A DNA stretch of 62,615 nucleotides, filler included, from Hausera hauseri (Eukaryota), in the NCBI GenBank assembly GCA_046269625.1. It is 12 parts of 12 records of this genome, joined end to end, with 100 filler letters (N's around TTAATTAATTAA, not from the genome) between each part and the next. Parts side by side here need not be neighbours in the genome. Positions count along the whole stretch, not along the records: positions 4,110 to 13,606 come from JBJURY010357709.1; 11 more parts are not named here. One strand, written 5' to 3'. Positions 1 through 46,337 of this stretch are shown in pieces. Numbering within the stretch: position 1 is the first letter of the stretch; each line of letters begins with the position of its first letter. Both the position numbers and the translations under genes were made by a program. The notes under the pieces were generated by a model. It was given only the letters and a program-made list of their open reading frames with translations. It did no database searches and had not been told where the DNA came from.

Positions 1-310
1 ATATTTTCTGTCATCACCTGTTGAATTTTTAATTTACTGGCAGATATTTCATCTTGCAATCTGAATACATTCATTTCCGAATCATTCCACAACCCACAAG
101 ATCTATCAAACGTTCTTCTATTCATATCACTGTAATTTTCCTTCATGTTTGCAAAATTTTCGAATTCAACCTGAATAATTTTATCGGCCTGAGCGTGTCT
201 ATTTCATTGGACAGACGGTCACGTTCATCGACAACATCCTCATACTTCAATTCAACGTCTTTTATCTTCTTGCAAAACATCGCCTGTTCCTTATCGTGCA
301 TCAATTGTAT
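1..310 (-). pseudogene. Unidentified coiled-coil coding fragment replacing the SMC4 C-terminal head
   Basis: After SMC4-like AGFSLINLELKE the frame reads HDKEQAMFCKKIKDVELKYEDVVDERDRLSNEID... (heptad-like, with stops and a frameshift). No LSGGE signature or Walker B follows. Confidence 0.35.
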
Positions 311-3300
311 TTCTTTTAATTCCAGGTTGATCAGCGAGAACCCCGCTTAAAATTCCCACAGTCGTTGCTGTTTCAATCTGTAATATTCATCCTTTTGCAA
401 ATCATGAACACTCGTCACGTTCTTCAATTTAATAACACGTTGCATATACTGTTCTTCTTTGTGTCGGTATTCCTCTATAGATGCCAGATTTGGCCTTTGA
501 CAATGAAGTTTGTCCTCCATTTCTTGATATCTAATCTTCTGTACATTAAATGCGTCCAACTCCTCATCTGAATACATCTTCAAAACCGTTTCTTTAAATG
601 CATCCTTTTGAGAACTGATCAATTTTTTGTTTCTTTCTCCAATGAGATCCATAAAAAATTATTGTCTTCTTTAAAATCTTCTGGAATTTGATATAGCTTT
701 AACATAGCGTGGGATTCTTTGATTTTGGAAATTCGATACTTAATTTGATCTACTTTCTCTTGTTTGTCCTTAACATCACGTTCCACCTGGACTTTTGTCT
801 GGTTCTGCATTTTTAATTTGTCTTGCAACTCCGAAAACACCTTTTCTTCTTTTGCTTTTTCTTTGCCCAATTCACCCATCTTCTTCTGAATTTCCTTAAA
901 TTCATTAAACGTTTGTTTAGCCTTTTCTTCCGAATTCGATAATAGTGTGATAAGTTTCTCTAATTATTTTTCTTTGTCTACCTTTTCTTTTTTGTCCCGC
1001 TCCAAGTTTTCACTTGTTTGGCAAGCATTTTTTCAGCAACAATCACGGCTTTGTTAACTTTCTTCAAGGATTCGGCCTTATTTTTCAAACTGTCATTGAT
1101 CGTGTTGATCCTAGTTTATGACACCGACAGTTTCCTTGGTCATGTTCTTAATGTTGTTCGTTAATTCTCCGACTTGATCCTGCAGCTTCTTGATCTTACT
1201 GTTACTCTTGTCGAATTTCTCGGTCAATAAGGCGATTTTCTTTTCGAATTCAGCCAACTGTCTCATGTCCGGTTTCAAATTCTCCAGTTGTTGTTTGGCT
1301 TCGGTAATATTCGCTCGTAAATTCGTCTGCTGTGCCAATAACGGCTTTAAACTATCAGTGCATCGTTGTTAAACACGCTGTCCGGCCTATATGTCCGTAT
1401 TCAATTTGTTCCATCGCTCTTCGAATCCGTTTAACGCCGTTGACAACTCCTGCATTTCCCGACTTTTCTTTGCCATATTCTTCTCGATCTTTCTCCGTTT
1501 GTCATGGGTCAACATCACTGACGGATCGGCTATCTGGTTTATGTTTGTGTTGATTTTCCCTGACAGACTCCTTCCGCCACCGGTGTACGCACCGGCTGGC
1601 TCCAGAAGGTCACCTTCTAATATCACGATTCTCTGCTTTGTTCCCGATGAACTATGAATCTTCTTTGCCGTGATTATGTTATCTACAATGAGCAGATCGC
1701 TCATCACAAAGTAAAATGCGTATCGATATCGACTATTCGAAAATTGCAACATATCGAACACTCAAACAGACTCATTCGGAGCCTTAAATGGTTTGTTCAC
1801 GTCCAGTCTCAATTGTTTATCCAACGCAATGAACGTCAATCGTCCGGCATCAGCTTTTTAGAACATTGTCCAACCTTGGACACGCTGTCGAAATGGCAAC
1901 GTCATATTTACTATCAACAGTTGCCAGATCACCAAGACGACCATATACGTTTTTAATTCTGCCAAACGGCACTTGTTCCATGATAAATTGCAAAGATTTT
2001 TGTCCGGTCTCTTTCGATCGGGATGACTCTAATTTTTGTGAAAGTTCGTTTATTTCTTGTTCAAGATTTTGTTTATTCCTTTTAGTATTATTTAACTTTG
2101 CGCCGTTGTCTTCAAATTCCTTCTCCATTACTGGTAGAGAGGTTTCCAATTTGTTCAGATTCGCTTGGTTCGTTTCAATTTGATGGGAAACGTATTCAAT
2201 ATCCGTTTCTAGCTTGCCTAATTTCTTTTCTTCCGATTTATAATTATTCCACAGCAAATCTCTCTGACATTCGAAATCGGTAATTGCACTCTTTTCTGAA
2301 TCTTTTCCTGTTCCGTTCGGACTTCTTCGTCCTTTTTGTCTCGTTTTTGCTGAATACTTTGAGTTTCTTCTTTCAAGCGCTCCTGAGCAACGATCATATC
2401 TTTATTTTATTTCTGAAGAGATTTCAAAAATTGTTCCTTTTCATCATTTAATTCATCACTTTTCAATTTGGATTCGTCCAGAACATTTTCATAATTAAGA
2501 ATTTCCACTTCGTAACTAGTAATTGATTTCGTCAAGACCTTTATCCGATTTTTTGTGTGCACGTGAATATCGCGCAATCGCGTATTTTCCACTTCATGAT
2601 TGGTGAAATTCTTCTTGGCTACTTTGAATGATTCGCACTTCTTTTCGTAATCTTTTTAGAATTTTTTAATTTCGACTTGTTTTTCAGATTTTTCTGCAAT
2701 TATTACATCCAATTCGGATTGCAATGCTTAGAGATTCTCTTCGTTAAGGTTTCAAATAGCCAATTCTTCAACTGATCAATTTTCCTTTAGTTTAAATTGC
2801 ATTTCTATGCTTTTCCGAATGACGATTTCGTTACAGAGTTTGAGATATTTAACACCTTCGTTTCGAACACCTTCTAATTCTTTCTTCTCTTTTTCAACAA
2901 TTTTAACTCGACTCAATTTTTCAGCACGTAATTCACAAAGTTTTTTTAATCGCATGGACAAGTCTTCGAGCGGAACTTTAAATCGACTAGAACCAATGAT
3001 ATCCTCTAAATATTCCAACAAACCGTCTTCATGTTCAGTAAGGGCTTTCGGTTTCATCAGAGCGATTTGTTTAACTTTTCCTTGCAAAGTCAAAAACCGA
3101 TTATGATCCCAATCAATTCCTTGTTTCTTCAGAAAATTCACAATTTCTTTATTATTTTTCCTGTCGCCATTTATTCAATAAATACTCAAATTATCTTTCG
3201 TCACCGTTCTGGACACGGTAAATTCCGAATTTGAAATTATCTCATAATCTTCATCGCCGTCACCGGTGGACACCATTTGTTGAAAATATACGCACACTGT

Positions 3301-3605
3301 ACAGTCTGGCACATTTGGAAAAAGTTCACTTTTGTGAATCAAAACATTGAGTTTCTTCGATCGAATTTTCGTTGCACGAAATCCAAAAACAAAAGGCATA
3401 GAATCAATAACGTTACTCTTACCGCTTCCATTAGCACCGATAATACACGTGAAATTTTTATGAAACGGACCTAATGTTCGATTTCCCCCATAATATTTAA
3501 AATTTTGTATTTCAGTCTTCGAAATAATCAACCTTGACCCAGATATGTCATAGCAGAATGCTGGTGGTAGTACTCCCTCAACAACTATGGGAGGATATTC
3601 TAATA
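311..3605 (-). pseudogene. SMC4: Condensin subunit SMC4 pseudogene, intronless, with many stops and frameshifts, C-terminal head missing
   Basis: RLIISKTEIQNFKYYGG..LGPFHKNFTCIIGANGSGKSNVIDSM.FVFGFRA.KIRSKKL (Walker A); GIDWDHNRFL.LQG.V.QIALMKPK..EHEDGLLEYLEDIIGS; hinge YGRLGDL..D.KYDVAISTAC and GDLLEPAGAYTGGG; PNLASIEEY. In-frame TGA at 3175-3177 and frameshifts near 2400 and 2260. Confidence 0.92.
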
Positions 3606-4007
3606 TTAATTGTTCGGATGTTTAATTACTTTCAACGAGCGAATTCTCTTCGTGGACAAATTCATAATCTGCAGATATGGAAGCGGATTCAATTCCGCTG
3701 ATTTTAAACGATTCCCCGAAGCATTGATGTAAGGAAGATTCGTGATATTTGACAACGATTGAACTGTTTTAATGGCATTTTTCGACATGTTGATGAAACA
3801 TAAATGAATGAATTGGATGACAGTGGAGGTGTCCGTTAAATCATGTTTTGCACAATCCAATTTGACATATGCAAAATTTAAACTTGCTCCAATTTGTGAA
3901 ATCATATTAATACATTCCGATACGACTATTTTGCCCAAAATCATTATTGGCTCATATTCTTCCATGCTTTCTTTCTTCAATCGCATCATTTGCAAAACAG
4001 TTTCCAA
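3606..4007 (-). pseudogene. LRRC23: Leucine-rich repeat protein fragment, LRRC23-like (ciliary radial spoke), 3'-truncated
   Basis: AYVKLDC..HDLTD....FIHL.FINMSKN.I...L......INASGNRLKSAELN.LPYLQI.NLS matches the recalled LRRC23 N-terminal LRR block. It ends after HP, directly against the SMC4 5' region. Confidence 0.72.
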
Positions 4008-4009
4008 AG

Positions 4010-4109
4010 NNNNNNNNNNNNNNNNNNNNNNNNNNNNNNNNNNNNNNNNNNNNTTAATTAATTAANNNNNNNNNNNNNNNNNNNNNNNNNNNNNNNNNNN
4101 NNNNNNNNN
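4010..4109. other. Assembly linker N44-TTAATTAATTAA-N44; also at 13607, 19367, 23480, 28438, 32769, 37007, 42618, 48403, 53178, 58279
   Basis: The same 100-bp spacer, with stops in all six frames, occurs 11 times. Confidence 0.98.
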
Positions 4110-4111
4110 TT

Positions 4112-4660
4112 AAGGATTGTAAGGCAAGTTTAAGAGAACCCATGTTTAGACTTAGTGAAACAGACTGGGTTAGTTTGCCAAATGGAGGTATTACTACCTC
4201 TCCAAATAAATTAACAGGAACATATCTGGGGAAAGGAATTACGGACGATAAATTTCAAGATACCTCGTCCAAAGGCATATACAGGCCTAAGGAAATTGAA
4301 GCTTTCAGACAATTTATCGCTTTCCCGCAACAACGAACGCTTGAACTAAACCTAGCCATGGCCTCGGTAGTGGCCGATACAAGATATCAGGCTAAATGGG
4401 AATCATTACTTGGCTTAAACCATTATCAGGGAGTAAGTACAGAAATACTCTACAAAATTTCGGGAAGATTTTTGATTTTTGGCCAAGCCGCATCCAGATT
4501 CCTAGCGATATATTTCCTGATACAAATGATCAAGGCGGTCATCCAAAAAGTAATAAATGGATATGAGATATTTACATTAACCGAATTTTCATGCAAAATA
4601 TTGACTTCAATCATAACGCCCTTTGGAAAGTTCTTAAAAGCATATGAAGAGAATAGATGA
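4112..4660 (+). CDS. C-terminal part of a chuvirus (Jingchuvirales)-like fusion glycoprotein with membrane-anchor region
   Basis: DC....PMFRL...WVSLP; SSKGIY..EIEAFRQFIAFPQQR...LN; FLIFGQAAS.FLAIYFLIQMIK.VI..VINGY.I....S.KIL. This follows the recalled chuvirus G pattern (PMY..W; GIY...LR..IMFP; F..FG..SA....I....LIK.II...IHGY). Open from the contig edge. Confidence 0.75.
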   Translation, partial: KDCKASLREPMFRLSETDWVSLPNGGITTSPNKLTGTYLGKGITDDKFQDTSSKGIYRPKEIEAFRQFIAFPQQRTLELNLAMASVVADTRYQAKWESLLGLNHYQGVSTEILYKISGRFLIFGQAASRFLAIYFLIQMIKAVIQKVINGYEIFTLTEFSCKILTSIITPFGKFLKAYEENR

Positions 4661-5329
4661 AAATCAGACGTAGAACGCCATGTCGGCTATCACAATCGTA
4701 AACGAAAAGGAAGGCCTATGTTCTTGTACAAGCGGAAATCTACAAAACCCAATATGCGAAGAAATAATTTAGATGATGACGAGCCTAAGGGAGGAGAAGC
4801 ATTTGCAAAAATAAGCAGGCACAAGACGTACTCTATCATTAAAGCACCATTGACTATGCTACCTCCTACCGCTCTAGTCTATAACGACTGTGACAAACGA
4901 TCAATGAATTCATATTAGACGGAAACCTATAAAAGGATGATTAATGTAGAAGATCCGTATGAAGGCACGAAACGCTACGGAATCCTGCGGAAAATGTGTT
5001 ACCGACAGCCCGTGGAATATCCCAAAATGTTGTACTCTCCGAGAGAGCCTTGGAATATAGAAACTAGGTCAACGGTTTGGGACCATCCAAGGTTGAAAAC
5101 CCTCCAAAATATCGAAGTACACACTAACAATTGAGAACCTTTAATGAGTACTCAAGAAGCAGAAAACTTATTCATCGAAAGCAACGAATTATACCGAAAC
5201 GGAGAGTTGAAGCAACTAGCAGAGTACATAGTATCCTCCCCTGAAATTCGAATTAATGGGCATAAGATATCAATGATTAAACGTCCAAAAGTATCATCGA
5301 ATTGTGTTGGAATAATAATAGAAGGATGA

Positions 5330-8300
5330 CCCTTCGCTAAAATCATTATCGAAGACTGGGAAGTTTATGCATTAATTGATACAGGATCGGAAATGTCTTA
5401 CATCATAAATGATTCAATACCTCAAAGACTCAGAGAGCAGCTATACCCACCGTCTTCAAAAGGTCCAGGAAGTACAGGAGCTTTCGGTCAAATGTCAAAG
5501 CCAAGGTTTAAATGGAACCTGGAAGTTCAAATAGCTGGACAGTTTTTCCGTCATGAATTTGCAGTTATGGAGCAATTAACAAATGACGTAGTTTTAGGGT
5601 GCGATCTACTAAAAAGGTTAATAAATATAGCAATCGATTTGCAAACAGAAAAATTAATAAAAATCAGACTAAATAAAGGTATAATAAAGGCCAAAGAAAG
5701 AAAATTTGGAGAAGTATGGACATCTGTACACGAAGACATTCCACCAAGAACAGAAGTGATAATTTACGCCCAAATACAGCAAGATGACGATCAACGGGTA
5801 TATTTTGAACCAAAGGATACATTAGATCCGAATATATTACATAGCAATATACTAACAAGAGTACACTCCGGTCGGGTGCCGATCAGAATAGCTAATAACG
5901 CGCAGATACCCGTCAGGCTTCATGCTTATACCACTCTGTGAAATACCTATAGAGTATCGTCAATAACTATTGAAGAAAAACCTTATAAGTATGCCGAATT
6001 CCCGCCTCATGCCGAAACTAAGTTTTCATCTGAGTCTTATTGTCGACTCTATGAATTATTATGTCACCATAAATCTCTTCTGGCGAAAAAAGTCGAACGA
6101 ACGCTTAAGGCCAATCTATAGATCTTGGTATTCGCCAATCCAAATGGTTAAGAGGAAAGGTACCACAAAATATCGATTTTGTATTGACTACAGAGTATTA
6201 AATAATCTTACGATGAAAGATTCCTTCCCATTACCGTCAGTCAAAGAGGTGTTAGATAGACTCTCCAGAGCAAAATGCTTTACCACTCTGGATTTACAAT
6301 CCGGATATTGGCAATTAGAAATTCAGGACGAAGACCGTTATAAGACAGCATTTAAAACGCACGATGGTGTTTATGAATTTAACGTCATGCCGTTTGGTAT
6401 TACTATTGGGCCAGCCATATTTACAAGAATGATGAACAAAATGTTAATTGAACTGGATCATGCCTTTGCATATTTGGATGACGTAATGATAGAGTCAAGG
6501 ACAGAAAAGGAACATTTAAAGGATATTGAACATGCGCTGATGCGTTTGGAACAAGCCGGATTGAAACTAAATCCAAAGAAATATAAATGGGCTCAGAATG
6601 CAGTATCCTACCTTGGCCATATAGTTGGAGAATGAGGATCGAAACCATATAAATCGTTATTAAACAAAATATCAGATTTTATGGAAGCACAAAACCAGAA
6701 GGAGCTAAGGCATTGGCTAGGACTCTGCGGATATTATGCAACCTATGTGCCAGATAATTCAAAAATTAATGCACCCTTATATCATCTACTTAAAAAAGAA
6801 TTAAGTGGAAATGGACAGACGTCGAACAGAAGCCTTCGATGAGATGAAGAAGATATTAACAAGTGAATCTGTTTTACGATACCCAGACTTTCACTTACCC
6901 TTTATAATCAAGATAGACGCTAGTAAAGAAAGTATTGGTTATTAATTGGTGCATAAAAGAGAAGATGACAAACTAGAACACCCAATTTCTTATGGAGGAC
7001 ATTCCTTGAAGAAGGCCGAGAAAAATTACTCTGTTGCAGAATTAGAAACCCTAGCCGTAAAAGAAGCACTTTGATACTTCAACGTTTACGTATACGGGCA
7101 GAAAATTTTAATTGTTACTGATCACAAGCTGCTACGCCCTTAAAATGCCAGGCAAATAACCCGACATGCAGACTTAACAGACGGATCGAAGAAATATCGA
7201 GATACAATATCGAATTCCAGTATAAACCGGGAAATAAACATGTAGATGCCGATGCACTATAGAGATTAAAAACTAAAACAATCGCAATCACGGTAATAAG
7301 GAAAAGCAAACTTGAAGCAATAGTAGATTGCCAACGCACCTTAGTGCTGGATAAAGCAATTAAAATCTCCTCAGAATAAAGAAAGGATAAAGTTACTCAG
7401 CAGATTATACAATTTGCTAAAAAAGATATCATACCAAAGGGACGACAATTAAAGAAACATTTACGCAGACATGGACATAAATACTACGTCTTAAATGACA
7501 AGAGCAATAAGGATATTCTATATTACAAAGGAAGGAAATTGATAGTTATTCCAAAAGGTTTACAAATCGAAGCGTTAACTTCTGATCATGATTTGTATTT
7601 AGCCGGACACATGTCCTAGAAGAAAACATTAGAAAGAATAATGAATAAATACTTTTGGCCCAGTATCTGTATTGATATGAAAAATTGGGTAAATAGCTGA
7701 GAAGTATGTGCAACTAAACAAAAGAAGATGAAAAACTACATGGTCGAATTAATACCAATTAATGTGCCCGATAGACATGTGCAAGCCATGTCTATGGATA
7801 TCGTAGGACCTCTTCCTATGACCCACAAGAACAATAAGTATATCTTAACTTGTGTTGATCGACTAACTTATTTTGTCGAGTTGATAGCATTAATTGATCA
7901 AAAGGCAGAAGCTTTGGCCGAAGCCGTAGTAAGAAGAATTATTTGTCGATATGGGCCCCCAGACAAGATACTCACAGATCGAGGAAGAAATTTTACAAGC
8001 GGACTATTCGAGAACATCACCAAAATATTTGAAATCGAACGGTTAACAACTACCACATATCACCCTCAGTGTAATGAAATGGTCGAACGGATGAATGTTA
8101 CCGTCATACGGATACTATCAACAGTAGTGGCGAAGGACCAAAAAGATTGGTACGAATTTTTAGAAGGAACTCAGTTTACTGTTAATACCATTCCACATTC
8201 AGGAACAGGATTTACGCCATTTTTCATGATGTATTGACGTGAAGCCGTATTACCCACGGATATAGGAATGACGCCATACACGGTTAATCTTGAAGATTTA

Positions 8301-8620
8301 GAACAAAATTTTCCAGAATTAGAGCAGACGCAATGACAAAAGTGTTGGGAAATCGCCAAGACGTTATCTCAAGAAAATCAAAAGTAGTTTAAAAAGCAAT
8401 ATGATAAGAAAGCAAAACCACATGATTTGAAACCAGGAAATTTGGTTTATGTACACTATCCCGTAGCCAGGAAAGGCATCTCATTAAAACTGACTCGTAC
8501 AGGCAGAGGACCGTACGAAATTACCATAGTTACGCCGGCCGGAGTATATATTAACAAGAATGGAAAGGAAGAAGTTGTGTTAGTAAAATGAGTGGTCAAG
8601 ACAGAATACGGTCCAATAAA
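5330..8620 (+). pseudogene. pol: Gypsy pol of element A (protease, dUTPase-like spacer, RT, RNase H, integrase), disrupted
   Basis: ALIDTGS (5378); FCIDYRVLN, LDLQSGYWQ, MPFG, YLDD; RNase H DASK and NYSVAELE; integrase MDIVGP, TDRG, MVERMN; GPY motif near 8510. Many stops and frameshifts, and a deletion at the RT start. Confidence 0.95.
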
Positions 8621-10078
8621 CGTTACAATTTACGCCAACGCAAGTTAAAGGCATCTTCAATAATTGTTAGACCGATGTCGTACGTTCAGGTAGTTTTAGT
8701 ATTATCGTTAATTGCTTCTTAAGTTCCGAGAACACAGACTCAATGGTGGCACGATGAATCTACGCTAGGAGATGTATACGAAATTCGAAAGAGTGGAATG
8801 AGGACGAGGACCAAACCAGAACAAACCCCAGAAGAAATCCAAAAGCGAGAAGACATTAAATTATTGCAGTCGATGACAATCCATTATTTCTCGCCACACT
8901 CTGTATGTGTCGTATTTAAGGCGTAGAGGCCACACCACGATTTCGGAAAATTTCAAATCGTCTTACATGATGTAACAACAAAAGAAGCGAAAAATTGTGA
9001 TTTTGAACCGGGAGATTATACGCAGTGTTGCGATGTAGATTTTGGACGCACTTATAATCTTACTGATCGCCTATATCTACCGGATTCATCCAAAGTTTAC
9101 ATCGAAATAAAGCCACAATTCCAATCACTCATCCCTACGTGGAACAGACATCATGTAATAAAGCCTAACGAAATGTTACGATCCACTGACCCAGATATAA
9201 AACTATTAGACGAGATTATCCATAGAATCTCTGTAAACAAGGAAAACCAATGCATCCAAGTAGATGCCAAGACAGAGCTAACTGTCAGTCGAGAAATTAA
9301 TATCACATTCGAAGCAATAAAAGGACCGACTTAGAAGATAGGGTATTGTTCTATTCGCGCAGGCGTGCAACATCCATGCTGTAAACTACCCATAAACTAG
9401 GAGTTTATAATAAAATTTGACTTATATGACGTACGGCTGAATAAACCGAGTATCCAATTACGACCTTACTATCCAGAAAATAAAATATGGAAAATTCCAG
9501 TGGGAACCACGACCAAAGAGCCAACCACTAAGGTTAGTCTTACTACTCGGACTGCTACAGCGAGCAATATAACTAAAGGAAAATTGGAAAGCGTATCTAT
9601 TAAATATTCGGCACACCGATTTAAAATTGTGTTCTTTGTAGAAAGGAAACAAAATTACGATATTCACATAAGTTGCCGAACAACCTATAATAATCAAATT
9701 GTAACGTTACTTAAAGGCACTTATCAGACAGAATGCTTTTTGTTAAAACCGCAATCCGATTACATAGTACAAATAAATGCAGAAGGTAAGCAAAACCAAA
9801 CAATTACATTGCGTACCTTAGACGTAATTCGTGCAGGATCGCATACATATGAAAATATAGACGATGAAATCACAACCCCAGTTACAACACAAGCACCACT
9901 GAGATTAACTACTTTCCGATCGTATCCATTTTTTGTACTGTCAACGTTTGCTCTCATTATACTAATTGCGATTTTTCGGTTAGTTGCCAAAAATTGTTAT
10001 TTTAAGTGTCCTAAAAGTACAAAGTGGGAACTAAGGGAACTGGCAGAGACCATTGATTCATATGATAAAATAACCTGA
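8621..10078 (+). pseudogene. Type I membrane protein following integrase in element A (signal peptide, two Cys-patterned repeats, FN3-like domain, TM)
   Basis: One frame from RYNLRQR (8621) through MSYVQVVLVLSLIAS (8675) to 10078, with 4 point stops. Contains TQCCDVDFGRTY, LLDEII..CIQV..HPCC, CFLLKPQSDYIVQINA and TM YPFFVLSTFALIILIAIF. Confidence 0.75.
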
Positions 10079-10192
10079 CAATTACAGAGCGGGTTATTCT
10101 GTCACTGGATAAAAAATTGGTTTTATTTTAAAAATGATCTTTATTTTAAGAATAATCCGTATTATTTATTTCTCAGAATCGAGAACAGCGGG

Positions 10193-11958
10193 ATGTCCGG
10201 GCGACATAGAATCGACCAACGGGAAAAGGGAAACAATTCGACATGTCGAGTTAGTATAGACGAATTTCTACAGAATCACGCTACTATGCTGATTATGAAT
10301 TCCAATTCTATTTATCGATAAATGCACAACGAACTGTACGGAAAAGCTGTCATAAAATATGACCAGGTTTACGCCATACCGAATAATTTGAAAGGGACAA
10401 CGGAAGAAGCTAGAATCGTCTACCTTTATACCATGAGGGAAGATCGCGACGGTAAAGCCTACTCGCTCAGACAGCTAATAAATCACGAAATCGGTCAGGA
10501 TCTGTATATCCACTTAGCGGATGGCAAAATCTATTACAGGCTACAAAACCAAGAATGCAATACGGAAAATAGACGACATTATAGATTTAGTACCTTAAAA
10601 TTACTAGGTGAAGATTTACAGGATAAAGAATTGAAATTCATAGTCACCGCTTTTTCCGTCAAAATAATGATTGAGGTAACAAAAGACGAACCGAGAAAAG
10701 TCTTGTCACCACCCCTAGAATTTCGGCATAGGCCGTTAGAATCAGAGATAGCGAAATTCTTATATTCCTACAGATTGGTGCCACACGCTAGGAATACTAA
10801 AATTATCGCTCTAAGCTGCGGCGAAGGTAACGAGGCGGACAAAATACCGATGAAAATTTTAATCAGGGAGACGGATGGAATGGAATTATATCACACGATT
10901 ATTAGCCGAAGAAAACGAGTCAGAGATACCTTTTTTGACAAAACAGGAATCCGTAAAGAAAATTTAAAAGAAGGAAGCGACATCAAAATGGTACAAAATG
11001 AATTAGCCCATTGTCTGTATGGATGTATACTTAATGGATATCGTGTGGAATAAGATATATCGTTATTAGAGATTCCTTACTGAAGAATGGCAGGAGTAAG
11101 ACAGCTTAATACGCACCCACTTATTGACGAGAGAACAAAGAAACTGCTACGAGAAAGAGACTATTCGATGCCAAAGATCATGGACGCTTACTTCAAAATA
11201 ATGATAGAAGCTACAATTAATAGTCGGACTAAAATTAGTAAATTGTTGACAGCAACCAAACGTACTCAGTACCTACGAGATGCTTATGCCGGAATATCGT
11301 GGGAACACGAATATGTGCCCACAAAACCTGAGTATAACTTGATCAGTGCTGCAAACCCAAATCAAATTGATGGGAAATACCGTAAAGAATATCAACCCTA
11401 CAAAATGCTCGGAACTGACAATAATTAGCTTCATAGCACCAGTCAGAAAGACTCCATAATGCCACTAGACAAGGAAAAGACGACAAATCGGCCTTCAAAA
11501 TCCCCAAAGTTCCACAAAAGAAACAGAGAATCGATACAAAATCGCAAAATACAAAAGGGAAAACTTCCTTATGTGATCGCATATTTAAAGGGACGCGTAA
11601 AATCAGTGGCACAGAAACGATGATCGAAGTAACGAAGAAGACAGAAAATGTCCTACTAGTTAAAAAAGAATCGGAAGAAACTATAGTTCAAGAAAAAAAA
11701 GACCTAGAAAAGATTAAAAGGTATACGGAAATAAATATTCTTAGGAATAGAAACTCGACCGGAAATCAACACTTTGCTGCTGTAGGAGATTCGCCTAAAA
11801 TGCTAATAATAACTGAACATTATAGCAAAGGAAAGATCAAAGAAGCAGTCTTTTACATCACGGTTACCCCAAAGAGAGAAGTATATGAAAACACCTATAT
11901 ATGGGAGAATCCCAAATTAGGAAAATATGTTGCCCTGATTTTCCAATCAGAGACATGA
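10193..11958 (+). pseudogene. Long accessory ORF of unknown function downstream of the element A polyprotein
   Basis: ATG 10193 and ORFs 10322-11053 and 11087-11428 share one frame broken by isolated stops. ORF 11620-11958 follows in a shifted frame. Same strand and A-rich composition as pol. Confidence 0.5.
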
Positions 11959-12229
11959 AAAATTAACGGTGCCAGTAGANNNNNNNNNNTCAAGACACAA
12001 TATCAGAAATACCTAGCAGCCAACCGAGTTCCGGACTTAGATCACGAGATGGTGGTCGATTGGACATTAGTAGCAGTAAGTTGTGACCCAAGACGAAGCG
12101 CCGTGGACCCAAAACAGAAACGAATTCATGGATACTTATATTGAGGTAAAGAATCGTTAATATTTGAACAAATTGAAATTGCGATCAGTGGACCTGAATG
12201 ACGAAAAATGGAAAAGAGAAGAAAATGAA

Positions 12230-12364
12230 TGCCCAGTCTGTGAGGCAAACTTCCAACAAGGATATGTTATCCTGGATAACAAGGATTGCAGACATAAATA
12301 CCGCCGGGAATGACTAGAAAAGTGGACCCTAGAAAATGGTAAGACCACTTGCCCAGTATGTCGA
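12230..12364 (+). pseudogene. Degenerate RING-H2 zinc finger
   Basis: CPVCEANFQQGYVILDNKDCRHKYRRE*LEKWTLENGKTTCPVCR. Ligands 5 and 6 read CGC and TGA, each one substitution from His and Cys. Not in the ORF track. Confidence 0.75.
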
Positions 12365-13314
12365 GCCGAAGCAGCCGACTTAAAGTACTTCTCAAACGGA
12401 GGATATACGAGAGTAGTACGTATAAAATTTTATCATAGTTACGAAATCGAAATTCGGCACGATCATAATGATACGGATTCCGGAACTAGTTTACGCCGAC
12501 GAATGAATTTATTAAGACCTCGCGAGGCTTGCGGCACATCTTCGGACTAAATGGGCACCTCAGAGAATGCCGTTCAGGAAGAAGATATGTTGTAGTGACG
12601 GACTAGTGGGCGAAATGCTAAACAGGCGACATCTGTAAATATTTTATTTCCTAACAATTAAATTGTAAATACTTATTGGTTTTGAAAATTTCCTGTAGCA
12701 ATTAAATTGTAAATAGTCGGTTTGATGGATTTTGAATGATCATATATGCAATTATAATGCCAATAAAAATAATAGATCAGAAAAAGCGGAAAACAAAACA
12801 AAAATTAATATGTAAAAAGGAAATAGTAGAAAATTTAACGGAAAAATTGGAACTATATAAACAGAGATGAAAATAGTGAAAAAGAGTAGTAATGAGTGGA
12901 AAATAGCTAACGATCGACAGCAAACAATTGGAAACTTCAAGGACAGAGTTGATTGACTTATTTGACGATTTTTATTGCGGAGTGATCGACGTATTGTATC
13001 CAGAATTTTACTGGTAAATGTTTTTTTTATTAAATTGTTGTACGGTCTTAAATTTCTATATAGCTTTGCATTGCCCCATAAGGGTAATTGGACTCTCCTA
13101 AGTTTTTAAAATACACTGTAGCCTTAAATGGTTAAGAGTTGAACTTATAATTCGCACGTCATAGCATTCAGTACAAGCATTATATTTAAAATTTCAATAC
13201 AAGGCACAATCTGTCTACTAGATTACGGTAGACCTTCCCTGTATCAAAAGACTAATTTCAACGTAAATATTGTTAGTATTATAAAATTGCCGGTTCTGGG
13301 CCACCCCCCCTCAT

Positions 13315-13520
13315 TTGCGTAACTTCCGGTTTGAAATTGCGCAACGACCGGGGTAGAATTGCGTCACTTCCGGTAAAAATGGCGTAACCCGGTAGAAATT
13401 GCATCACTTCCGGTAAAAATTGCGTAACATCCGGAGGAAATTACACAATTTTCAGCGGAAATTGTGCAATTTGTGCAGGAATTGCGTCACTTCCGGGGTA
13501 CAAATTGCGTTACTTCCGGC
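13315..13520. repeat. Degenerate tandem repeat, unit about 20-23 bp (AAATTGCGTCACTTCCGGT), about 9 copies
   Basis: Copies include ttgcgtaacttccgg, ttgcgtcacttccgg (twice), ttgcatcacttccgg, ttgcgtaacatccgg and ttgcgttacttccgg. Confidence 0.85.
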
Positions 13521-23479: not shown

Positions 23480-23639
23480 NNNNNNNNNNNNNNNNNNNNN
23501 NNNNNNNNNNNNNNNNNNNNNNNTTAATTAATTAANNNNNNNNNNNNNNNNNNNNNNNNNNNNNNNNNNNNNNNNNNNNAAATTTATAGCGGAAAGGTCT
23601 ACATGCATTTGGTCCAATTTGCGAATTATTCGAAAACCA

Positions 23640-26370
23640 ATAAATCGATTTAAATTCTAACTGCACATTCACGTACAACATCAAGTGCACTACCGATTGC
23701 ACCCGATCCCGAGTGCTAATGATCGATTTTTGATTTTTCGAAAATCCAATATTATTGATTTTTGCACATTTGCACATGTGCTACACACTTGCACTTTCAC
23801 CAATCGATGTGCACTCATGTGCACTATCGATTAGCACAAAGTGCAGATCGACTCGATCAATAGTGCACTGTGCCGCGATCGATTTGTGAAAAGTGCAAAA
23901 GTGCCCTTACCAACGGTTTCTAGCAGCACCGTTGCCAGGCACTTTTTGGATCAATAGTGCTCCGGATGCACTCTCGATCGGCACATGTGCAAAATCGATT
24001 TATCGATTACCGCTTCCTCCGGGGTGGGGCAGAACTGCCATTTTATCACTACTAGTAGCCAAATCAATTTTAGATGTTGAAGGTAAAGGTACGGTGGCAT
24101 AACGAGCTGTACAGTTCTACAGTTCTAGGGAGATGTTGGTTCCGTCATACTTACCCATACCGTACTTCCGGTCACGTGATAGAGTGCATCATTTCCGGTC
24201 GAATAGCATCGCTTCCAATTCAGTTTGCTTTACTTCCGATCAAATTTTGTATATTTTCGGCACAATGTGAGCAATTGCGAGAACAAGACACGTGATTTTG
24301 CGTAGTTTCGTAGTGAAAATTGTGCAGTCCATCACGTACTCATGTGATAATTTTAAAAATACAGAAAATCTACTAAGTGAATTGAGAAATTGACCTTAAA
24401 AGGAAATGGTTTTTGGGAAGTTGCGTCGGAACCAAGAAATATATTGCATTTTTATTTCTATAGTCGACCTAAACATATCAGCGCAGTTATAACAGTATAT
24501 AGCATATTTGTCCAGGCTGATAACACCGGCTGATTCAGTCACAGTTCCCGTTTTTCAGTCAAATTTTCCAGGATGTGCGATATCTCAACTCCCAAGAATC
24601 CAATGGAGTTGGTTAAGATGTCGTTCAATTCGTATAAATGAGGTGAGACAAATAAATCCAATATGAACGAAATACATACCAGTAGTATGAGTAAAAAACT
24701 GAGCAAAAAATACATCTTGGCTTGATCACTGCTCAAAAATGAAATATAATATGGGACTTTTATGTATTCCTTCGAGTAGTATTCTGTAAGCTCTATCCAC
24801 TTGAATCTGATTAGAATTTGTCTGATGAGTAGTTTGAACACTATTTAATTTTGGGCTACAGCTATTTAAAGTTTTTGAAAATCAGAAAATGTCTAATAAT
24901 TCAGTAAGCGTAGAGGATAAGGAGTCGGTTAGCATATTATTGGAAAGGTAAAGAGGAGAGAAATTGAATGGTGAAAAGTGCGTGGTCGACTGATTCATCT
25001 TAGTTGAGAAGTGGGCAATTGAATACTTTTGTAGGTTAAAATACGTGGGCACACAACAACACATCGTAAGGAGTCGAGTAATTGTGCAAACGAAAAGCCA
25101 TGCCTCAAATTATGCGAGCCTATGTGTACCATATGTCAGTAATTGTTGAGTAATGAGTTATCAAAGAAAAGTTTACATATATAGACAGTAAATATGAGCA
25201 ATCGATTAGGATGTCCAGTCCAGATTATATGCAATCAATGGAGCATATGGATATAAGTCAGATCATTCGTACATTATTTCATTATTATTATCATTCAACA
25301 AGCAGTGTGTTATTTTAGTGTAGACCGCTTTGGTAGAATGTTAGAACGTGTAATACCAAATACCCCTGGATATGATATATTTTCTTCGGCGACTTTGATA
25401 CTAGAGCCACATATTCAAGAACTTGTGGACGTCAGAGTTTGCCTAATGCTTCCTTATGGCATTTACTCTCAAATATGTTCTAAAGGCTGATTATCCTCTA
25501 AATTTAACACCCATGTTGGCACTGGAGTAACTGGCAGTATAGGAAAAATAGGAAGTCTGCCCACCCGGGGGGGGGCGTTAATCGATAAAACCATTTTGCA
25601 AACATGTTGGTCGATAGTGCGCATGGAGCACTATCGATCGTAATGTACCAGGCAACGGTGGCGTTAAGCAGCGTTGCTAAGCACATTTTTTATATTTCAC
25701 AAATCGATAGCTGAACATTGCACTTTTGATCGAATCGATCGACACAAAGTGCTAATCGATAATGCATATTAGTGCACATGGATTGGTGCATAGTGCAGGT
25801 GCACTGCATATTTGGAAGTGTGCAAAAATCAATAATACCGGATTCCGGATTTCCGATCATCCAAATATTGATGATTAACACGTGGCACCGGGTGCAATCG
25901 AGTTCAAAATCGATGCACTATGTGAATGTACAATTAGAATTTAAATCGGTCTAATGGTGCTCAATAAAATGCCAAGTGGGGCAGACTTCCCACAGGGCTT
26001 TTCGGTATAAAATAAAAATCAATAAAATCGACATGTTGCATTTACAGGTCGGTAGTGCACGAGGGGCACCACCAATCGGCAAGTGCTCAAGGCGGATGTG
26101 CCCTTGGGCATCGTTGCCACGGCACTTTTGCACTCTTCACATTTTTGTAGATGTACGGCCTAGCATTGATAGAATCGATCGAAGCCAAGTGCAGGTGGAT
26201 AGCGCATGTCGAGATGCATCGTGTTATGCACTGTCAGATGCACTGCACATGTGCAAGTGTGGAAAAATCAATAATATCGGTTTTCCGGTATTTCCAATAT
26301 TTCCGGGTGCAATCGATTCGAAAAACGGTGTGCTATATGAATGTGAAATTAAAATTTAAATCTATCAAGT
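23640..26370. repeat. Three diverged copies of a ~400-bp unit: 23640-24050, inverted 25545-25950, and a further tandem inverted copy 25975-26370
   Basis: Shared blocks atttaaattcta, attgcacccg, attattgatttttgcaca, caccgttgcc.gg and gggtgggg?cagac appear in opposite orientations. Confidence 0.75.
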
Positions 26371-27278
26371 GGATTTCGATTAATATCGACTCGAAGGTGA
26401 GGTGGATCAGAGATCCCACAAGTTTTATTTGCCCTAAGCACTCAAATATCGATATCATTTTGAACGGGGACAGATAGGAAACAGAGTATGCAGGTCTCGA
26501 ATATCGAGTCGAATATTCAAAATTCGAATATTTTTGTTCGAATATCGAATTTCGAGATTTTCGAAAAATCTAACAACGGCATTTGATTCCCCATGTCCGA
26601 AAATCCCTCGACGCATTAAAATTATTTCATGAAAATGTGCTATATAGATACAAAATCAATATTTCAAGTTAAGCAAAATGTGCATTTAAAGCTTAGTAAA
26701 GTGGATATCGATAAATATAACAGCACACACAGATAAGAAGCCATATGTGTCGAATCGTAGCATGACGTCAAATATTCGGATTAGAATTAAAAGTCGAATA
26801 TTTAGCTATTTGAACTCGAAAACTCGGTAAAGCATGCATTATTCGAAGAATCTAATGACGTCATTCAATTCTCCATGTATGAAAACCTTTTAAATTTGGC
26901 GCTTAAGTGCATTTAATTTATTTGGTGCATTAAACAAAGTGTTCTAGAATGTTCGAAAATAAAGAAAAATTTAAAATTTAAAAAATCCATAAATATTGCA
27001 GTGTGCGTTGACATGGCCATATATTTCATTATTTCCAAAATCACTTTCACGAATGATGAGATTTTTATTTGTGCTCCTCAAATAATTGGTTGATTTTTAG
27101 ATGTGCAATCCATACAAAGAATGCTTGGCTCAAATTCACGAGCATTAAAATTTTCAAAACATTATGAAGAAATGTTTCAGCCATCTTTACAACATGGCTG
27201 AGTATTATATATGACCTATATGTGAAGTAGTGTGCCACAACCAATTATGAGGACTTTTACAATGGCCTTAAGCAACAC

Positions 27279-28437
27279 TTGATTTCCTTCACCAAGTCGA
27301 AAAAACAAATATTCAGTACCACTATGCTGATAATGACTTCCATGACTAAAGAAAATCAAAGATGCAGTTCATATGTGTATTGCACATGTGCAATACACAA
27401 TCCTCAGAATTGCCACAATACCATGAGGAGCTATTATGGACACAAATTTAATAGAATCATCTATTATATCTGCTTCGGATGTGAGGCTGTATGTGATGGA
27501 GAATATATACAGATTTATGAAGATCACAAACATCATTTGACTGACTTTACATCAAAGTCAAAGATGATCATCTTTAATAAACATATGCTACTTGCACAGC
27601 TTGCAGTACCACAGCCTGCAGTACAACCACATGCAGTACTAAAACGCTCATCAGGCACATCAGGCGCATATGTCGCATCAGGCGTAGCGGCTCCATCAAA
27701 GAGTCAAACAGAGAGGCAAGTTAATGCTGCACCATTAAAGAGGAAATGCCACAAATATATATTTGATGCAACTGGTCAAACAACAGTCAAGGAGTTCCTG
27801 GAGTACACAGAGGAAGAAACAATTGCGATTCTTCGGGAAACATAACTGAGATCCAGACCCTTAAGGGGAATATGAACCTTGATGCGACATACGTCAATGT
27901 TGATGTCGAAGAATCCAATAGGGCCTTCAAGACCAAAAATAGACCCATTTTTGAAGCCACCAATATAGTAGAATGGATGCATGAAGAGCATGCAAAGCTG
28001 ATCCGTGAAGCCAATGAGAGGCAGAGTAAGAAGGACGGATGGACTCTGGCAACCATCAAGAGATTGCTTGTGTATGATCACAAGTACTCTCCAATGCGGG
28101 GTAGTTCATATATTCAGATTCCGGAATGGATCGCTAATAAAAAGCATGCATCAATGTCCTTAATGATGACAGTAAGTGTATCATATATGCAATTTTATGT
28201 AAATTCGAACGGGATCAAAAGCATTCAGCAGATCGAGTTTGGTTATATAATGATATGAAGCACAACTATGACTTCCAATGTATTAAGTTCCCGCCATCCA
28301 TAGATGAAATCAAAAAATTTGGGCGAATCAACAATATATCCATCAACATCATTTGATTAAATGATGAGGACAAATTCTATCCCCTGCAGATATGTGATAC
28401 TGAATTGGGCGATCATAGGGATCTGCTCCTACTAGAT
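27279..28437 (+). pseudogene. N-terminal region of a Polinton protein-primed PolB (second lineage)
   Basis: GWTL..I; YSPMRGSSYIQIPEWIANKK; shifted frame ACINVLNDDSKC..YAIL, FPPSIDEIKKF..INNISIN, YPL..DLLLL. Homologous to 56700-57883. Confidence 0.8.
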
Positions 28438-32768: not shown

Positions 32769-33507
32769 NNNNNNNNNNNNNNNNNNNNNNNNNNNNNNNN
32801 NNNNNNNNNNNNTTAATTAATTAANNNNNNNNNNNNNNNNNNNNNNNNNNNNNNNNNNNNNNNNNNNNGCAGAGTATAAAATCATCATATTTGAAATTTT
32901 GTATTTTACCTGCTTTGTGTACTTGATATTTTGCTATTTTTTCTGTTTATTTGAATCATTTTGGCTGCTCTTGTTTAAGAGTGCATTAAAGCAAATCATG
33001 GTCTGCATTACTGATTTGGTATAGTTTTTATGCCGGATGCCCTTCATAATGCAATCATCCTATTTATCTGGACAATTATTCCTGTTAATATAAAACATGT
33101 TTTCTATCATTGTCATTAAAACATGAAGGTAGAAACACAACCAAATTAATCATATTTGAATGATAAATCAGTTTGAAAACAATTCATTTATTTGCCACTA
33201 ATTTGTTAAGGTTCTTGTGGGTTAAAAGCAGTGAAATTATTCATTGACCTCATACATCATTCACACATTAATTATTCTCACATCAAGAAGTAGTTTAGAG
33301 TGGCCAATCAGAAAAGTTGTATAACTAGTGAGAGAACCAGACTATCCTGAATGATAAAAAGAAAAAAACACGAATAATTGTTCACAGTGACCAAAGAGAG
33401 TAACTATGTTGCTTTGTTGTAACCAATCAATTTGCATCATGGCAGGGTTCTCTAGCCCTCATTTTCACGAAATGTGCTTATGTCCAAAAAATAATCAATT
33501 TGAAAAA

Positions 33508-33942
33508 ATGGAATCCTCAAATCAAGGAACAACAACAACAATCTCCACCACAACTCTGTTTAAGGAGCCAAAAACCTACTTCGGTTACTCAATTCATTTC
33601 CTTCATCAACCAAAAGTAGTGAAATTTAAAGAACCAGTTCAGTTAAAAACAACCAAATTCGGATATCTACTACGAAATGTGTCAAAGGATGATATATACG
33701 CGTTAAATGAAGTTTTCAACATAATGCCGCGTCCAATATCACTTGATTCGGAAAAGCTTTTTGTGAAAAAAATGAACCCTCTTGGTATTTTTAACAGCCA
33801 AGGAAAGAGGATCAAGTCAGTCCCTCAGGATTCAGTGGTGAACATCCGCATGCAAGTGAATGGTTATAAAGTCAGCTCAGAGGGTAAGGCATCACCACTT
33901 TTCGAGATCAAAGAAGTTCGTCTAGAATTCTTAGATGACTAG
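33508..33942 (+). CDS. Member of an unnamed ORF family shared with 53427 and 47422 (possible OB-fold ssDNA-binding protein)
   Basis: YFGYSIHFL...VQLK..KFG.L...S.DD.., and C-terminal NGYKVSSEGKASPLF, align with 53427-53882. The ORF is intact. Confidence 0.55.
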   Translation: MESSNQGTTTTISTTTLFKEPKTYFGYSIHFLHQPKVVKFKEPVQLKTTKFGYLLRNVSKDDIYALNEVFNIMPRPISLDSEKLFVKKMNPLGIFNSQGKRIKSVPQDSVVNIRMQVNGYKVSSEGKASPLFEIKEVRLEFLDD

Positions 33943-34259
33943 TTATTGTTTTCTTTCATTAAAAACAATAAAAATGGTTTCTTTAACTTTGTTACTTTTT
34001 TCCATATAACTAATTTAATAACCATGATTTTATAGTGCAATAGTTATCGATTATAATTTGCAATTTTTAGTTGCACTGTTGATTATCAAATTTAACTTTT
34101 TACATGCTATAAACAATTAATATATTTAGATAATTTTTTATATTCTTATTCACAAATATTAAGAAATTTGAACAATTTCAAAGGATTTACAGTGATGAAA
34201 AAACTATAAATTAAAAAATGATTAGGTTTCTTATACGGATTCCCATTACATTTTACAAT

Positions 34260-35300
34260 TCAACATGAAAATTTTAGTTCAAAATTTCCATTTCTAAAAA
34301 TGGTAAAAATGCTCATTCTCTGAATTGTCAACAGGAAAGTTAACGTTATCTCAGAGTAAATATGGCAATACTCCTGCGTAATTTCAGAGGTCCAGACTTC
34401 CTTGATAGTATCGGTTAAGTTTTTTGCTAAAGTATGATTTCTAACATCGACTTTTCTTTTGACAATGGCCCAACAATTCTCTATTAGGTTCAGGTCTGGT
34501 GAGGATCCAGGACAAACCACCGGCTTTTTGTCTTTGTGTATGACACGGCGCTCCATCCTGTTGGAAGATGATGGTTTTGTGTATTGCCATCCACTTGGGT
34601 AGCTTCTGCGTTAGTATCTTGATGTACCGCTCAGTATTAAGGGAATTAAGGTATTCGGTGGAACAAACCATAGTTCAGCTATATTTTTGACAATAATGGC
34701 ACCCAAAATCATGACAGGTTGAGAGTGTTTTACTGTAGCGACCAAGTACTTTTTGTTGTATCACATATTTGACGGACGAGGAAAAAATTGGAGTAAGTGT
34801 AGAATTGTGAAATGGTATTCTCATCTGAGACTATCAGCTTTCTACAGTTAGCTACTGTCTAATGAGAACCTGTCTTGCAAAGGCCAATCTATCTGAAACA
34901 TTCTTTTTTGACATAGTTGGCTACTTTACCGGTTTGTAATATTTTAGGTAAAATTCATCGAGGTGGGGTCGTTGAATAGTGTGTACGCCCGAAATCTGAT
35001 CATCAGTTGAAAAACTGGAACAAATTGCAGTACTGGATATCATAGGATTAAGTTGGGTACGGAGAAGAATCACATTATCAGAACTTACTGACGTAACAGG
35101 TGGTCTGCTTGATCGCTTCCGTGATGCATAATTATTTTTATCAGCAATTCCTTTGAGTGTGTATGAAAACGGACAATGGAAAACATCTAAGTGAGGTACA
35201 ATGGTCCTTTGTGATAAGGTGTCCTTCTTCAAAACGTCGATTTGGTTCTCTTTTCTGTCGAAATTTCACATTTGTACCCGTTTTTAGCAGTTTTATAACC
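34260..35300 (-). mobile_element. Tc1-family transposase relic
   Basis: FQQDGAPCH; PGSSPDLNLIENCW..VKRKV; ATVKHSQPVMILGAI; N-terminal RKRSSRP. Frameshifted. Confidence 0.9.
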
Positions 35301-35674
35301 CTAAAAAACAGAAATAAAGTAAATGTTGGAACCAGAATGACTAGTTGGGGAATCCGGTCAAACCCCAACGGAAGAGGTGTAAGGGGTGCATAAATGTATA
35401 TAAATTGTATATATATAAAACTATATAATGTATATATGTGTGTATGTATGCGTAAAAATGTATGTGTTTATGTTAGTTGCACTGTGCGTACTGGTTGATA
35501 AAATAAGGGTTGTATAGAATGTATAAAACGTTGGTTGGATGTGTGTGTAAAATAATGGATGTATGATCCCTGGCAGGGTTCGGAGAACTGGGAATGCAGG
35601 AATAACCGTGAGTTGAGAGGTCGTCAAACGATCTTTACAAAACCATTGTTTTATAATTGCATGATGCTTGCACA

Positions 35675-35917
35675 ATGAGCAGACTGAATGACTTTAAAAG
35701 ATTACGGAAAATCGGGCAAGGTGCATTTGGTAACGCGTGGTTAGTTGAAGCTAGAGCCGATAATATGAAATACGTTGGAAAAGAAATGGGTTCTTATAAG
35801 ATGTCCGAAAGAGAATGACTAGATGCCAGAAAAGAGATTCTTATGCTATCGAAAATAAATCATCAAAATATCGTTACGTATTTGAAATACGAAGAAGAAG
35901 GAAAAATTGCCAAATGA
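35675..35917 (+). pseudogene. NEK-family kinase N-lobe fragment
   Basis: FKRLRKIGQGAFGNAWLV....KYVGKEM...MSERE*LDARKEI.ML.KINHQNIVTY. One internal stop; no catalytic lobe. Confidence 0.8.
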
Positions 35918-36077
35918 AAAGAAATTAGATAAATGGTACACACCAAAATAAAAGGAAAATAACGCAATTGGAGCTTTGAAATGTGAAAACCAAGGATGGC
36001 AAAATATTCACTCTGGATAAGAACAAGAATAATTTGTACATTTAAAGCATAATGGATAAGAGCAATAATAATTTATA

Positions 36078-36350
36078 TATTCGCCATCAACAGCGATATC
36101 AAAGAAAGTTTGGGCCGCTTTTTGGAAAGGATTTAAATTTGTGGGAATTCCCACTTATATATAATTATATATATATGATTATATAATATTATAATTATAT
36201 TTTTTACAATGGAATTTACTTCCCTTGTAACAAAATCCATTTTCACCAGTACACAAAGCCCGAAAATTCTCAATTGATTTTGGAACATCGTCGTGCAGCT
36301 TAAGGGCAGTTATTCTGAGGTTTTTGCCATCAGCGGCGATAATATGAAAT
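36078..36350 (-). pseudogene. Cyclophilin A-like fragments with a probable 54-bp intron (36154-36207)
   Basis: IAADGKN...[26 protein letters not shown], then a GT..AG AT-rich intron, GIP, and a second N-terminal piece TFFDIAVDGE. Confidence 0.8.
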
Positions 36351-36419
36351 AACATAAGCTGCTAAGCAGCTATATAATATAATCTATTGATGGGAAATTG
36401 AATAATAATAAATTGTATA

Positions 36420-37006
36420 ATGCAAATAATTATGAGTGATGTACAAAATGTCCTGATATGGACAAAAACAACAAATTCAATTTTTATGCAAAATATGCAC
36501 AGAAAAGGTGGAAATATGGTATCTGTCGATACAGATAAATTCGAGGGCCATACCTCTCGAGTCTCAAGTAAAAAGGTGAAATATTCAGGCCGGGAAAGGC
36601 CTCCAAAGTATGGACTATCAAAAGTGTCCAAATCGCTTTATTTGGAGAAACAAATGCAACATTCTGACATGATTTATTTGGAAATTAAAGCATTACAAAT
36701 AGCTTCTAAGTCTATATCTCAAAGTATCTCTGAAATTAAAGGACGGATTAGCAATGGGAAAAGATGTAAAAAAAGTATGTCAGATCTCAAAAGTGTTGAT
36801 CAGAAAAATTTATTGACTGCTCCAAAACTCATCTGTCGAGATACGTTCGATTCTTTTGAAGTTATCAGTTCTTTGGATCGTTGTGATTTAAACGAAATTA
36901 TTGTTAAATGGACTAAAGACAATTTATCAACTAGACAATCGTTCATTTTGGATATACTGTTCTACAGACAATTTTTATCAACGGAAAAAGATGTGCAAAT
37001 AATAGC
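36420..37006 (+). CDS. Hypothetical ORF, running into the gap
   Basis: About 195 open codons; no motif recognised. Confidence 0.25.
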
Positions 37007-42717: not shown

Positions 42718-42793
<76 letters not shown>

Positions 42794-42810
42794 ATGATGA
42801 TGATAGTGAT
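42718..42810. repeat. (TGA)n microsatellite
   Basis: About 25 perfect units at the contig edge. Confidence 0.95.
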
Positions 42811-42825
42811 GACGCAGTATGTGTA

Positions 42826-44900: not shown

Positions 44901-45049
44901 CCCATCGTTGCCGTCGATGGTGTCGGTTTTGCTGGCATGACAACAATTAGAACGAAACGTAAATGAAAGATTCGATAAACTGGGACAGAAAGATGAAAAC
45001 CATGCACCCATATTGCCGAATCATCATATACTTACCGTCAGTGTTTGTA

Positions 45050-46315: not shown

Positions 46316-46337
46316 TGTTTCAATAAATTAATCAATC

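Follow-up and report, generated by a model that had tools for sequence, protein, structure and literature searches.

The 62,615-nucleotide stretch of Hausera hauseri DNA analyzed here (hereafter the window) consists of 12 contigs joined by 100-base linkers, and the second contig (4110-13606) carries a broken retrotransposon. We conclude with high confidence that this element is a decayed Ty3/gypsy copy of the GAG-ENV-POL type, in which an envelope (env) gene for a glycoprotein B (gB)-type fusion protein stands in frame before the protease, and whose ancestor likely encoded a single Gag-Env-Pol polyprotein. In this dead copy, the four stops that separate Env from the protease most likely arose by decay. 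Stops and frame changes occur in every region of it, which places it outside the intact open reading frame (ORF) rule of the GAG-ENV-POL errantiviruses; the window copy cannot make the protein and is a relic of the type rather than an intact element. All features of the element given below, on contigs 2 and 8, lie on the plus strand.

The Env fragment (4112-4657) represents the C-terminal ~180 amino acids of a chuvirus-like Env of the HSV/gB type (HSV, herpes simplex virus), as identified by Pfam, hydropathy, the ESM Atlas and alignment to relatives. It matches PF24664 (Monjiviricetes_fusion; E-value 2.9e-19) at profile positions 426-599 of 653, which form the anchor-proximal portion of a chuvirus-type class III fusion protein, and hydropathy places its membrane anchor near 4487-4545. 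An ESM Atlas feature search, whose recognition value of 2220 was under the tool's mark of 2300, returned three PF24664 clusters at the top (0.95, 0.93, and 0.93), with herpes gB and rhabdovirus G among the lower-ranked matches. An earlier sequence-only reading of this DNA, which had called the glycoprotein chuvirus-like, is thus borne out. Other searches gave little: a word-based homology search of 320-2,000-residue proteins with the Env fragment yielded none of 395 candidates, tblastn against a phage collection found no match, an IMG/VR scan with Env found none in 23 stretches, and a PDB sequence search with Env returned a single match at E 0.8. An IMG/VR scan with the reverse transcriptase (RT) alignment gave two weak loci (E 2e-4), which we did not use. 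The Env fragment starts two bases past an assembly linker (4010-4109; 44 N, 12 fixed bases and 44 N, one of 11 copies in the window that join unrelated contigs), at the 5′ edge of contig 2, and the N-terminal ~425 profile positions of Env are missing. Because the element abuts this assembly linker, the contig end cuts off the ectodomain, gag and the 5′ long terminal repeat (LTR); the SMC4 sequence upstream of the linker belongs to a different contig.

Env and protease share one reading frame. The ATG starts at 4142, 4718, 4937, 5144, and 5393 all lie in it, as the sequence-only reading had noted, and exactly four single stops (4658, 4916, 5132, and 5327) interrupt it between 4112 and the protease. 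The Env-to-protease linker (4658-5329) separates the end of the Env ORF from the protease ORF by 672 bases, well inside the 2 kb within which env counts as directly upstream of pol. Its frame was set in advance by the two flanking Pfam domains, and in that frame only four of its 224 codons are stops, and the two remaining forward frames contain 19 and 17; dinucleotide shuffles (n = 5,000) averaged 16.0 stops (P 0.0004). This stop density (1.8%) is close to that of the RNase H-integrase region of the same copy (7 of 462 aligned codons, 1.5%), and the linker therefore looks like coding sequence that decayed at the rate of pol. Codon-usage scores clearly back the frame of Env, protease, RT, and integrase. 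Pattern, domain, and repeat scans of the linker detected no CCHC pattern, gag match, domain, direct repeat, or LTR, in agreement with the earlier statement that no gag or CCHC lies between the glycoprotein and the protease motif DTGS. We also considered the linker as a short gag, as in the ENV-GAG-POL layout of mites (PMC13524379), and rejected this given the absence of gag and CCHC signals. A single-sequence fold of Env plus linker was unusable (mean predicted local distance difference test score (pLDDT) 35.5), and we regard sub-cut-off Pfam matches to CHIPS, Enterotoxin_b, Tuberculin, DUF2703, and MecA as chance.

Most of the best-matching relatives encode Env and protease in the same order without interruption. 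We searched 1.84 billion representative proteins with HMMER, using Env-linker-protease with X at the stops as the query, and obtained 50 matches. Among the best 12 of these, ten continue from Env into a protease within one polypeptide (eight by Pfam, two by a DTG motif), while the proteins of the other two, P0133 and P0135, end soon after the Env anchor. A second search, with the Env of P0126 as the query and limited to proteins of 1,444-4,598 residues, which favors fusions, returned 12 matches that all contain PF24664 and a protease, nine of them also RT and integrase. P0126 itself (2,627 amino acids) runs from a CCHC knuckle through a hydrophobic segment, Env, anchor, protease, RT, RNase H, and integrase to a second hydrophobic segment, an ectodomain, and a final anchor. 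In the relatives, the Env ectodomain is preceded by one hydrophobic segment and ends in another, and 145-388 residues separate the Env anchor motif from the first protease motif, compared with 303 in the window, with linkers that show no sequence conservation. Ten relatives (P0126, P0131, P0136, P0139, P0181, P0183, P0184, P0186, P0187, and P0188) have gag features, either CCHC knuckles or Retrotrans_gag, upstream of Env; Gag is thus present in the element family, and in the window it would lie past the contig edge. Expression as an Env-Pol polyprotein, which the sequence-only reading had proposed, is supported as a layout that relatives encode. Nematode NERVs, described by Sacco et al. in 2022 (J Gen Virol), reportedly have a continuous gag-env-pro-pol ORF. 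They reportedly share with the window element a flipped env/pol order in a metavirus and an RNA-virus-type glycoprotein. The stop-free passage from Env to protease that marks NERVs and the planarian element Burro (below) is present in ten of the 12 best relatives, and the stop density of the linker suggests it for the window family.

Several relatives have further features of their own. Aspartic-protease domains are repeated in P0002, P0003, P0127, P0131, P0175, P0181, P0182, P0184, P0185, and P0187; P0175 has up to six DTG-type motifs, and several relatives carry one after the integrase. The NCBI record of P0126 belongs to a genome bin assigned to Flavobacteriaceae; its contig, of 9 kb, is most likely animal DNA in a bacterial bin.

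The pol region downstream of the linker is that of a Ty3/gypsy element (Metaviridae). The retroviral-type aspartic protease (5330-5626, DTGS at 5378) lies in an ORF of 5330-5941, of which 5330-5938 matches RVP (E 3.9e-6), and it is 30% identical to the protease region of a sister element on contig 8. A conserved spacer between protease and RT (5630-5938) matches the same place in relatives with E-values down to 5e-10 and has no Pfam match of its own; by analogy, it is likely the dUTPase-like domain that PMC6431247 puts at this place in Burro, a name that we infer. The RT (5967-6815, with a YLDD motif) matches RVT_1 at E 9e-36. Stops interrupt it, and its front is ~45 codons short with a frame change, seen in tblastn of P0003 as a jump from residue 586 to 632 at 6088/6090. 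RNase H and integrase (6816-8591, core 7779-8066) were recognized by rve (E 4.6e-14) and tblastn of P0001-P0004 and likewise contain stops and frame changes. The protease-RT-RNase H-integrase order with gypsy-type domains, supported by Pfam, tblastn, and the RT tree among gypsy Pol proteins, agrees with the earlier assignment to a Gypsy element. No direct repeat was found within contig 2, so a lone 3′ LTR would not be recognizable. The sister element on contig 8 (37107-42499) comprises linker, protease, RT, RNase H, integrase, and an in-frame signal-ectodomain-anchor module; its env region falls beyond its contig edge.

For an RT tree, we selected 31 of 111 rows: the 22 that scored best, together with the Env-Pol relatives and named outgroups, but no BEL/Pao row. 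The window RT fell, on a long branch of its own, into a clade of ten rows (support 100/98) together with all six Env-Pol RTs and the contig 8 sister. The window Env scored 49.5-81.2 bits against all 18 polyprotein Envs and 34.7-45.1 bits against all ten other Envs. Given the single-ORF relatives and the one RT clade, these sequences identify one decayed element whose env was inherited rather than newly captured. The Env trees alone neither show nor reject membership in the polyprotein group. The element matched one sequencing run, X1, with no RNA run listed, a result that has no bearing on expression. In X1, 12,997 contigs matched 4110-8700 at 85% or more and covered all 30 bins; summed depth in X1 is not copy number, and the element family has many copies in this run. 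A single diverged contig spans the junction of Env and linker (4613-4798). At the pol stops 5939, 6633, and 7617, nearly all X1 depth differs from the window copy, and stops of this type are therefore private decay.

The GAG-ENV-POL order and the gB-type Env are already known, and the window element is another decayed family of a published class. Chary and Hayashi (eLife 2026; PMC13524379) used Anakin-type baits to find 114 arthropod elements in which an HSV/gB-type, Chuviridae-like env stands next to gypsy pol, describe the order GAG-ENV-POL in Nematoda, Bryozoa, and Platyhelminthes (36, 10, and 9 rows of their supplement 1 by term count), and they argue for ancient inheritance of these env genes. 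Their Smed_errantivirus_1-6 have in common with the window element a Gypsy pol, a Chuviridae-like gB-type env before pol, and multiple copies, as well as an ectodomain between two hydrophobic segments; unlike them, the window copy is dead and lacks its 5′ half (PMC13524379). The Env of the window is of the same Chuviridae-like/gB class as that of the GAG-ENV-POL errantiviruses. As the window copy has no Env domains I-II, the Schmidtea elements are linked to it through relatives and motifs picked by eye. Relatives share motifs with the rows of the Schmidtea C1a cysteine bridge in domains I-II: a YQE-type motif occurs in 12 and C-x-T-G-x-S in 16 of 19 polyprotein relatives, and neither occurs in five stand-alone glycoproteins.

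Burro, a planarian element reviewed by Arkhipova and Yushenova in 2019 (PMC6431247), encodes a single large polyprotein in which env is placed, in frame, after gag and before pol; its Env matches mononegavirus fusion proteins, and a dUTPase-like domain lies between protease and RT. The in-frame Env, the protease-RT spacer, and accessory domains (a weak Bcl-2 match before Env in P0135 and ankyrin repeats in P0175) are points of likeness (PMC6431247). None of the BIR, MATH, Bcl-2, and ankyrin cargo of Burro, an element of more than 30 kb, was found in the 9.5 kb of contig 2, and the available part of the review neither names its Env as gB-type nor mentions a membrane protein after the integrase (PMC6431247). 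Anakin elements of mosquitoes (Dezordi et al. 2020; PMC7642597) likewise place a chuvirus-like glycoprotein inside an LTR retrotransposon and match the earlier statement that BEL/Pao elements have captured chuvirus G. Their pol is BEL/Pao, whereas the RT and integrase of the window group with gypsy (PMC7642597); the clade of the window has gypsy-type RVT_1, RT_RNaseH, H2C2, and rve, with no Pao-specific Pfam family among them. The available parts of PMC10084718 (Dezordi et al. 2023) and PMC7642597 report no clear Gypsy capture in insects.

Three other explanations of the Env-pol arrangement deserve attention. That an env-less Gypsy element recently and independently captured a chuvirus glycoprotein, as the sequence-only reading had proposed, we consider highly improbable. 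The window Env is just 29% identical to its nearest relative, and its branch in both Env trees is long and falls between the polyprotein Envs and the rest, which suits a capture and counts against our own conclusion. Its RT groups within elements where the same Env already occupies the same place, its scores favor polyprotein Envs over stand-alone glycoproteins of ~655 residues, and the Env motifs of the relatives are common to published Schmidtea elements. The proposal is thus not supported, and ancient inheritance is argued in the available text of PMC13524379. Nor does the further suggestion stand that env before pol reverses the usual order in an undescribed way, as GAG-ENV-POL is published in PMC13524379 and in-frame env in PMC6431247. 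We find it scarcely credible that the two are chance neighbors, whether a fossil viral glycoprotein or an element's 3′ env beside the pol of a different element. The contig edge hides what lies upstream, and a shared frame would arise by chance in one of three cases, yet the linker is depleted of stops in precisely this frame, the Env-linker junction recurs in a diverged copy, and the linker holds no LTR or gag; an LTR or a conserved stop marking two elements was one of the tests that the sequence-only reading had set. The same order within one ORF in relatives largely refutes a chance arrangement.

It is also unlikely, in our view, that the element is a GAG-ENV-POL element whose env ends naturally at or near 4658, with pol as a separate ORF in the same frame that is reached by read-through, splicing, or re-initiation. 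The observations that favor such a stop are among those that weigh against a single ORF. The Pfam Env match fades around 4658, near a plausible end of the Env tail (profile positions 599-609 of 653), and there is an ATG downstream, at 4718. None of the four Env-protease stops is among the 40 X1 differences listed, of 681 in all, and this list does not show 4658 to differ in sister copies; X1 may, moreover, be the source of the window itself. Four relatives have an ORF break between the protease and RT regions, so recoding or splitting exists in the clade: P0130, P0131, P0132, and P0186 stop after the protease or proteases, and one ORF to RT is not universal. P0131 and P0003, and likewise P0132 and P0176, agree in the length of their longest contig, which suggests ORFs split on one contig by decay or recoding. 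To these points must be added that codon usage favors the linker frame only weakly (-7.5, vs. -10.3 and -16.0), that the linker has no significant match to the linker of any relative, including that of contig 8, and that Gag is not seen in the window. Against a natural stop, a break between Env and the first protease occurs, among relatives with enough downstream sequence, only in P0133, P0135, and P0141, which may be fragments, and four stops are what decay at the rate of pol predicts over 224 codons.

Behind the integrase, the decayed GAG-ENV-POL element carries a membrane module (8639-10078) with a signal-like segment at ~8654, an ectodomain of ~400 residues, an anchor at ~9911, and four internal stops. 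It contains four N-glycan sequons, ten cysteines, and a fibronectin type III (FN3)-like motif at 9734, and in the window copy a frame change separates it from the integrase. A module in frame with the integrase lies at 41072-42499 on contig 8, and the same signal-ectodomain-anchor layout follows the integrase in frame in contig 8 and in ten of 14 related Pol proteins (P0002, P0003, P0126, P0127, P0175, P0179, and P0181-P0184); P0001, P0187, and P0188 have a cysteine-rich helical module instead, and P0185 has none. Profiles of the relatives' modules did not score the window module above shuffles, and its sequence likeness to them is not significant; its homology therefore rests on position, layout, and motif.

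Three weak, mutually agreeing leads suggest that the module may be FN3-like. The motif C-x2-L-x-P-x-[TS]-x-[YH] is found in strict form in six of 14 relatives, contig 8, and the window, and in loose form in ten of 14. The strict form is absent from 116 other gypsy matches, many of which are shorter, and was found in 19 of 50,000 shuffles, a count for which the S alternative had been allowed with the window in view. An Atlas search with the module of P0178 returned best matches that are all fn3, at 0.81 or less, which we treat as a lead only. In VIA-align, the modeled contig 8 module aligned to fibronectin with a Z of 5.2 and a root-mean-square deviation of 2.4 over 62 aligned residues, tied with other sandwiches and with a mean pLDDT of 42 for the model; Foldseek gave no match to this model at E ≤ 0.001. 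No relevant account of an FN3 or membrane module behind the integrase came up in the literature searched, which did not extend to Sacco 2022, Grohme 2018, Repbase, the eLife figures, and most of supplements 3-6, and the word fibronectin has no match in the available text of PMC13524379. The rear membrane module is the part of the element that could be new.

The remainder of contig 2 holds ~2.5 kb more open frame on the same strand (10079-12547), which begins after the membrane module, ends in a RING finger, and has no match among the relatives tested. Its first part (10079-11958), to which we assign no function, has ~510 codons in the same frame, then a 173-residue ORF past a frame change, and no Pfam family above the cut-off. 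The second is a broken RING-finger ORF (12161-12547), which matches zf-RING_2 at E 2.8e-7 if X replaces the stop and is possibly a candidate for accessory cargo. The contig's 3′ end (13335-13520) has short imperfect inverted and tandem repeats, apparently no LTR. Elsewhere, a gag-like ORF with a long Arg/Asn/Asp-rich tail (61446-62615, at the end of contig 12) matches Retrotrans_gag at E 0.02, below the cut-off, and weakly matches the gag region of P0136.

Judged from the sequences in the window, the host is an animal, possibly, going by the Env motifs, a flatworm. Host-gene sequence without introns occurs in three places: a decayed SMC on the minus strand (1-4009, SMC_N match); an open SLC15 peptide transporter of 654 residues on contig 10 (50592-52553), whose closest PDB match is animal SLC15A1/2 and which is absent from the protein collection searched; and pieces of TCP-1 that run on into pieces of ribonucleotide reductase (58655-60582). 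ORFs at 23580-28437, 32869-37006, 42718-48402, and 53278-58278 resemble by eye genes of Polinton/Maverick or adintovirus type, with ORFs that look like those for a packaging ATPase, an integrase, a DNA polymerase B, and a dUTPase.

How might one polyprotein serve as Gag, Env, and Pol? The polyproteins of enveloped RNA viruses, whose topology is set by internal signals and stop-transfer segments, offer a model. In intact relatives, the hydrophobic segment that precedes Env would serve as an internal signal, directing the ectodomain into the endoplasmic reticulum, apart from Gag, and would be cut by signal peptidase. The Env anchor would then stop transfer, so that the linker and the enzymes (protease, RT, RNase H, and integrase) remain cytosolic; the enzymes may stay bound to the tail of Env where the membrane buds and enter the particle, until the protease frees them. 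A second signal after the integrase would insert another surface protein. We put forward, as a tentative idea that is possible rather than probable, that these endogenous viruses of invertebrates make a two-glycoprotein envelope from one ORF, with a gB-type fusogen ahead of Pol and, behind the integrase, an FN3-type protein that is swappable and would serve for attachment or as a decoy. The enzymes would form a cytosolic loop between two anchors and be packaged through the envelope instead of a Gag-Pol fusion, and the rear module might be exchanged between lineages like a receptor-binding or immune-facing protein.

When gag, env, and pol share a frame, frameshifting and splicing, the usual retroviral means, no longer set the Gag:Pol:Env ratios, and sorting must fall to membrane topology; the available parts of the literature consulted contain no test of such sorting in these elements. 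Our findings add a decayed family to a published class and remove the case for a new capture. If the module behind the integrase is the receptor-binding partner of the gB-type fusogen, these elements would have a two-protein entry system, as in herpesviruses, and the module would be a marker that annotation limited to gag, pol, and env misses.

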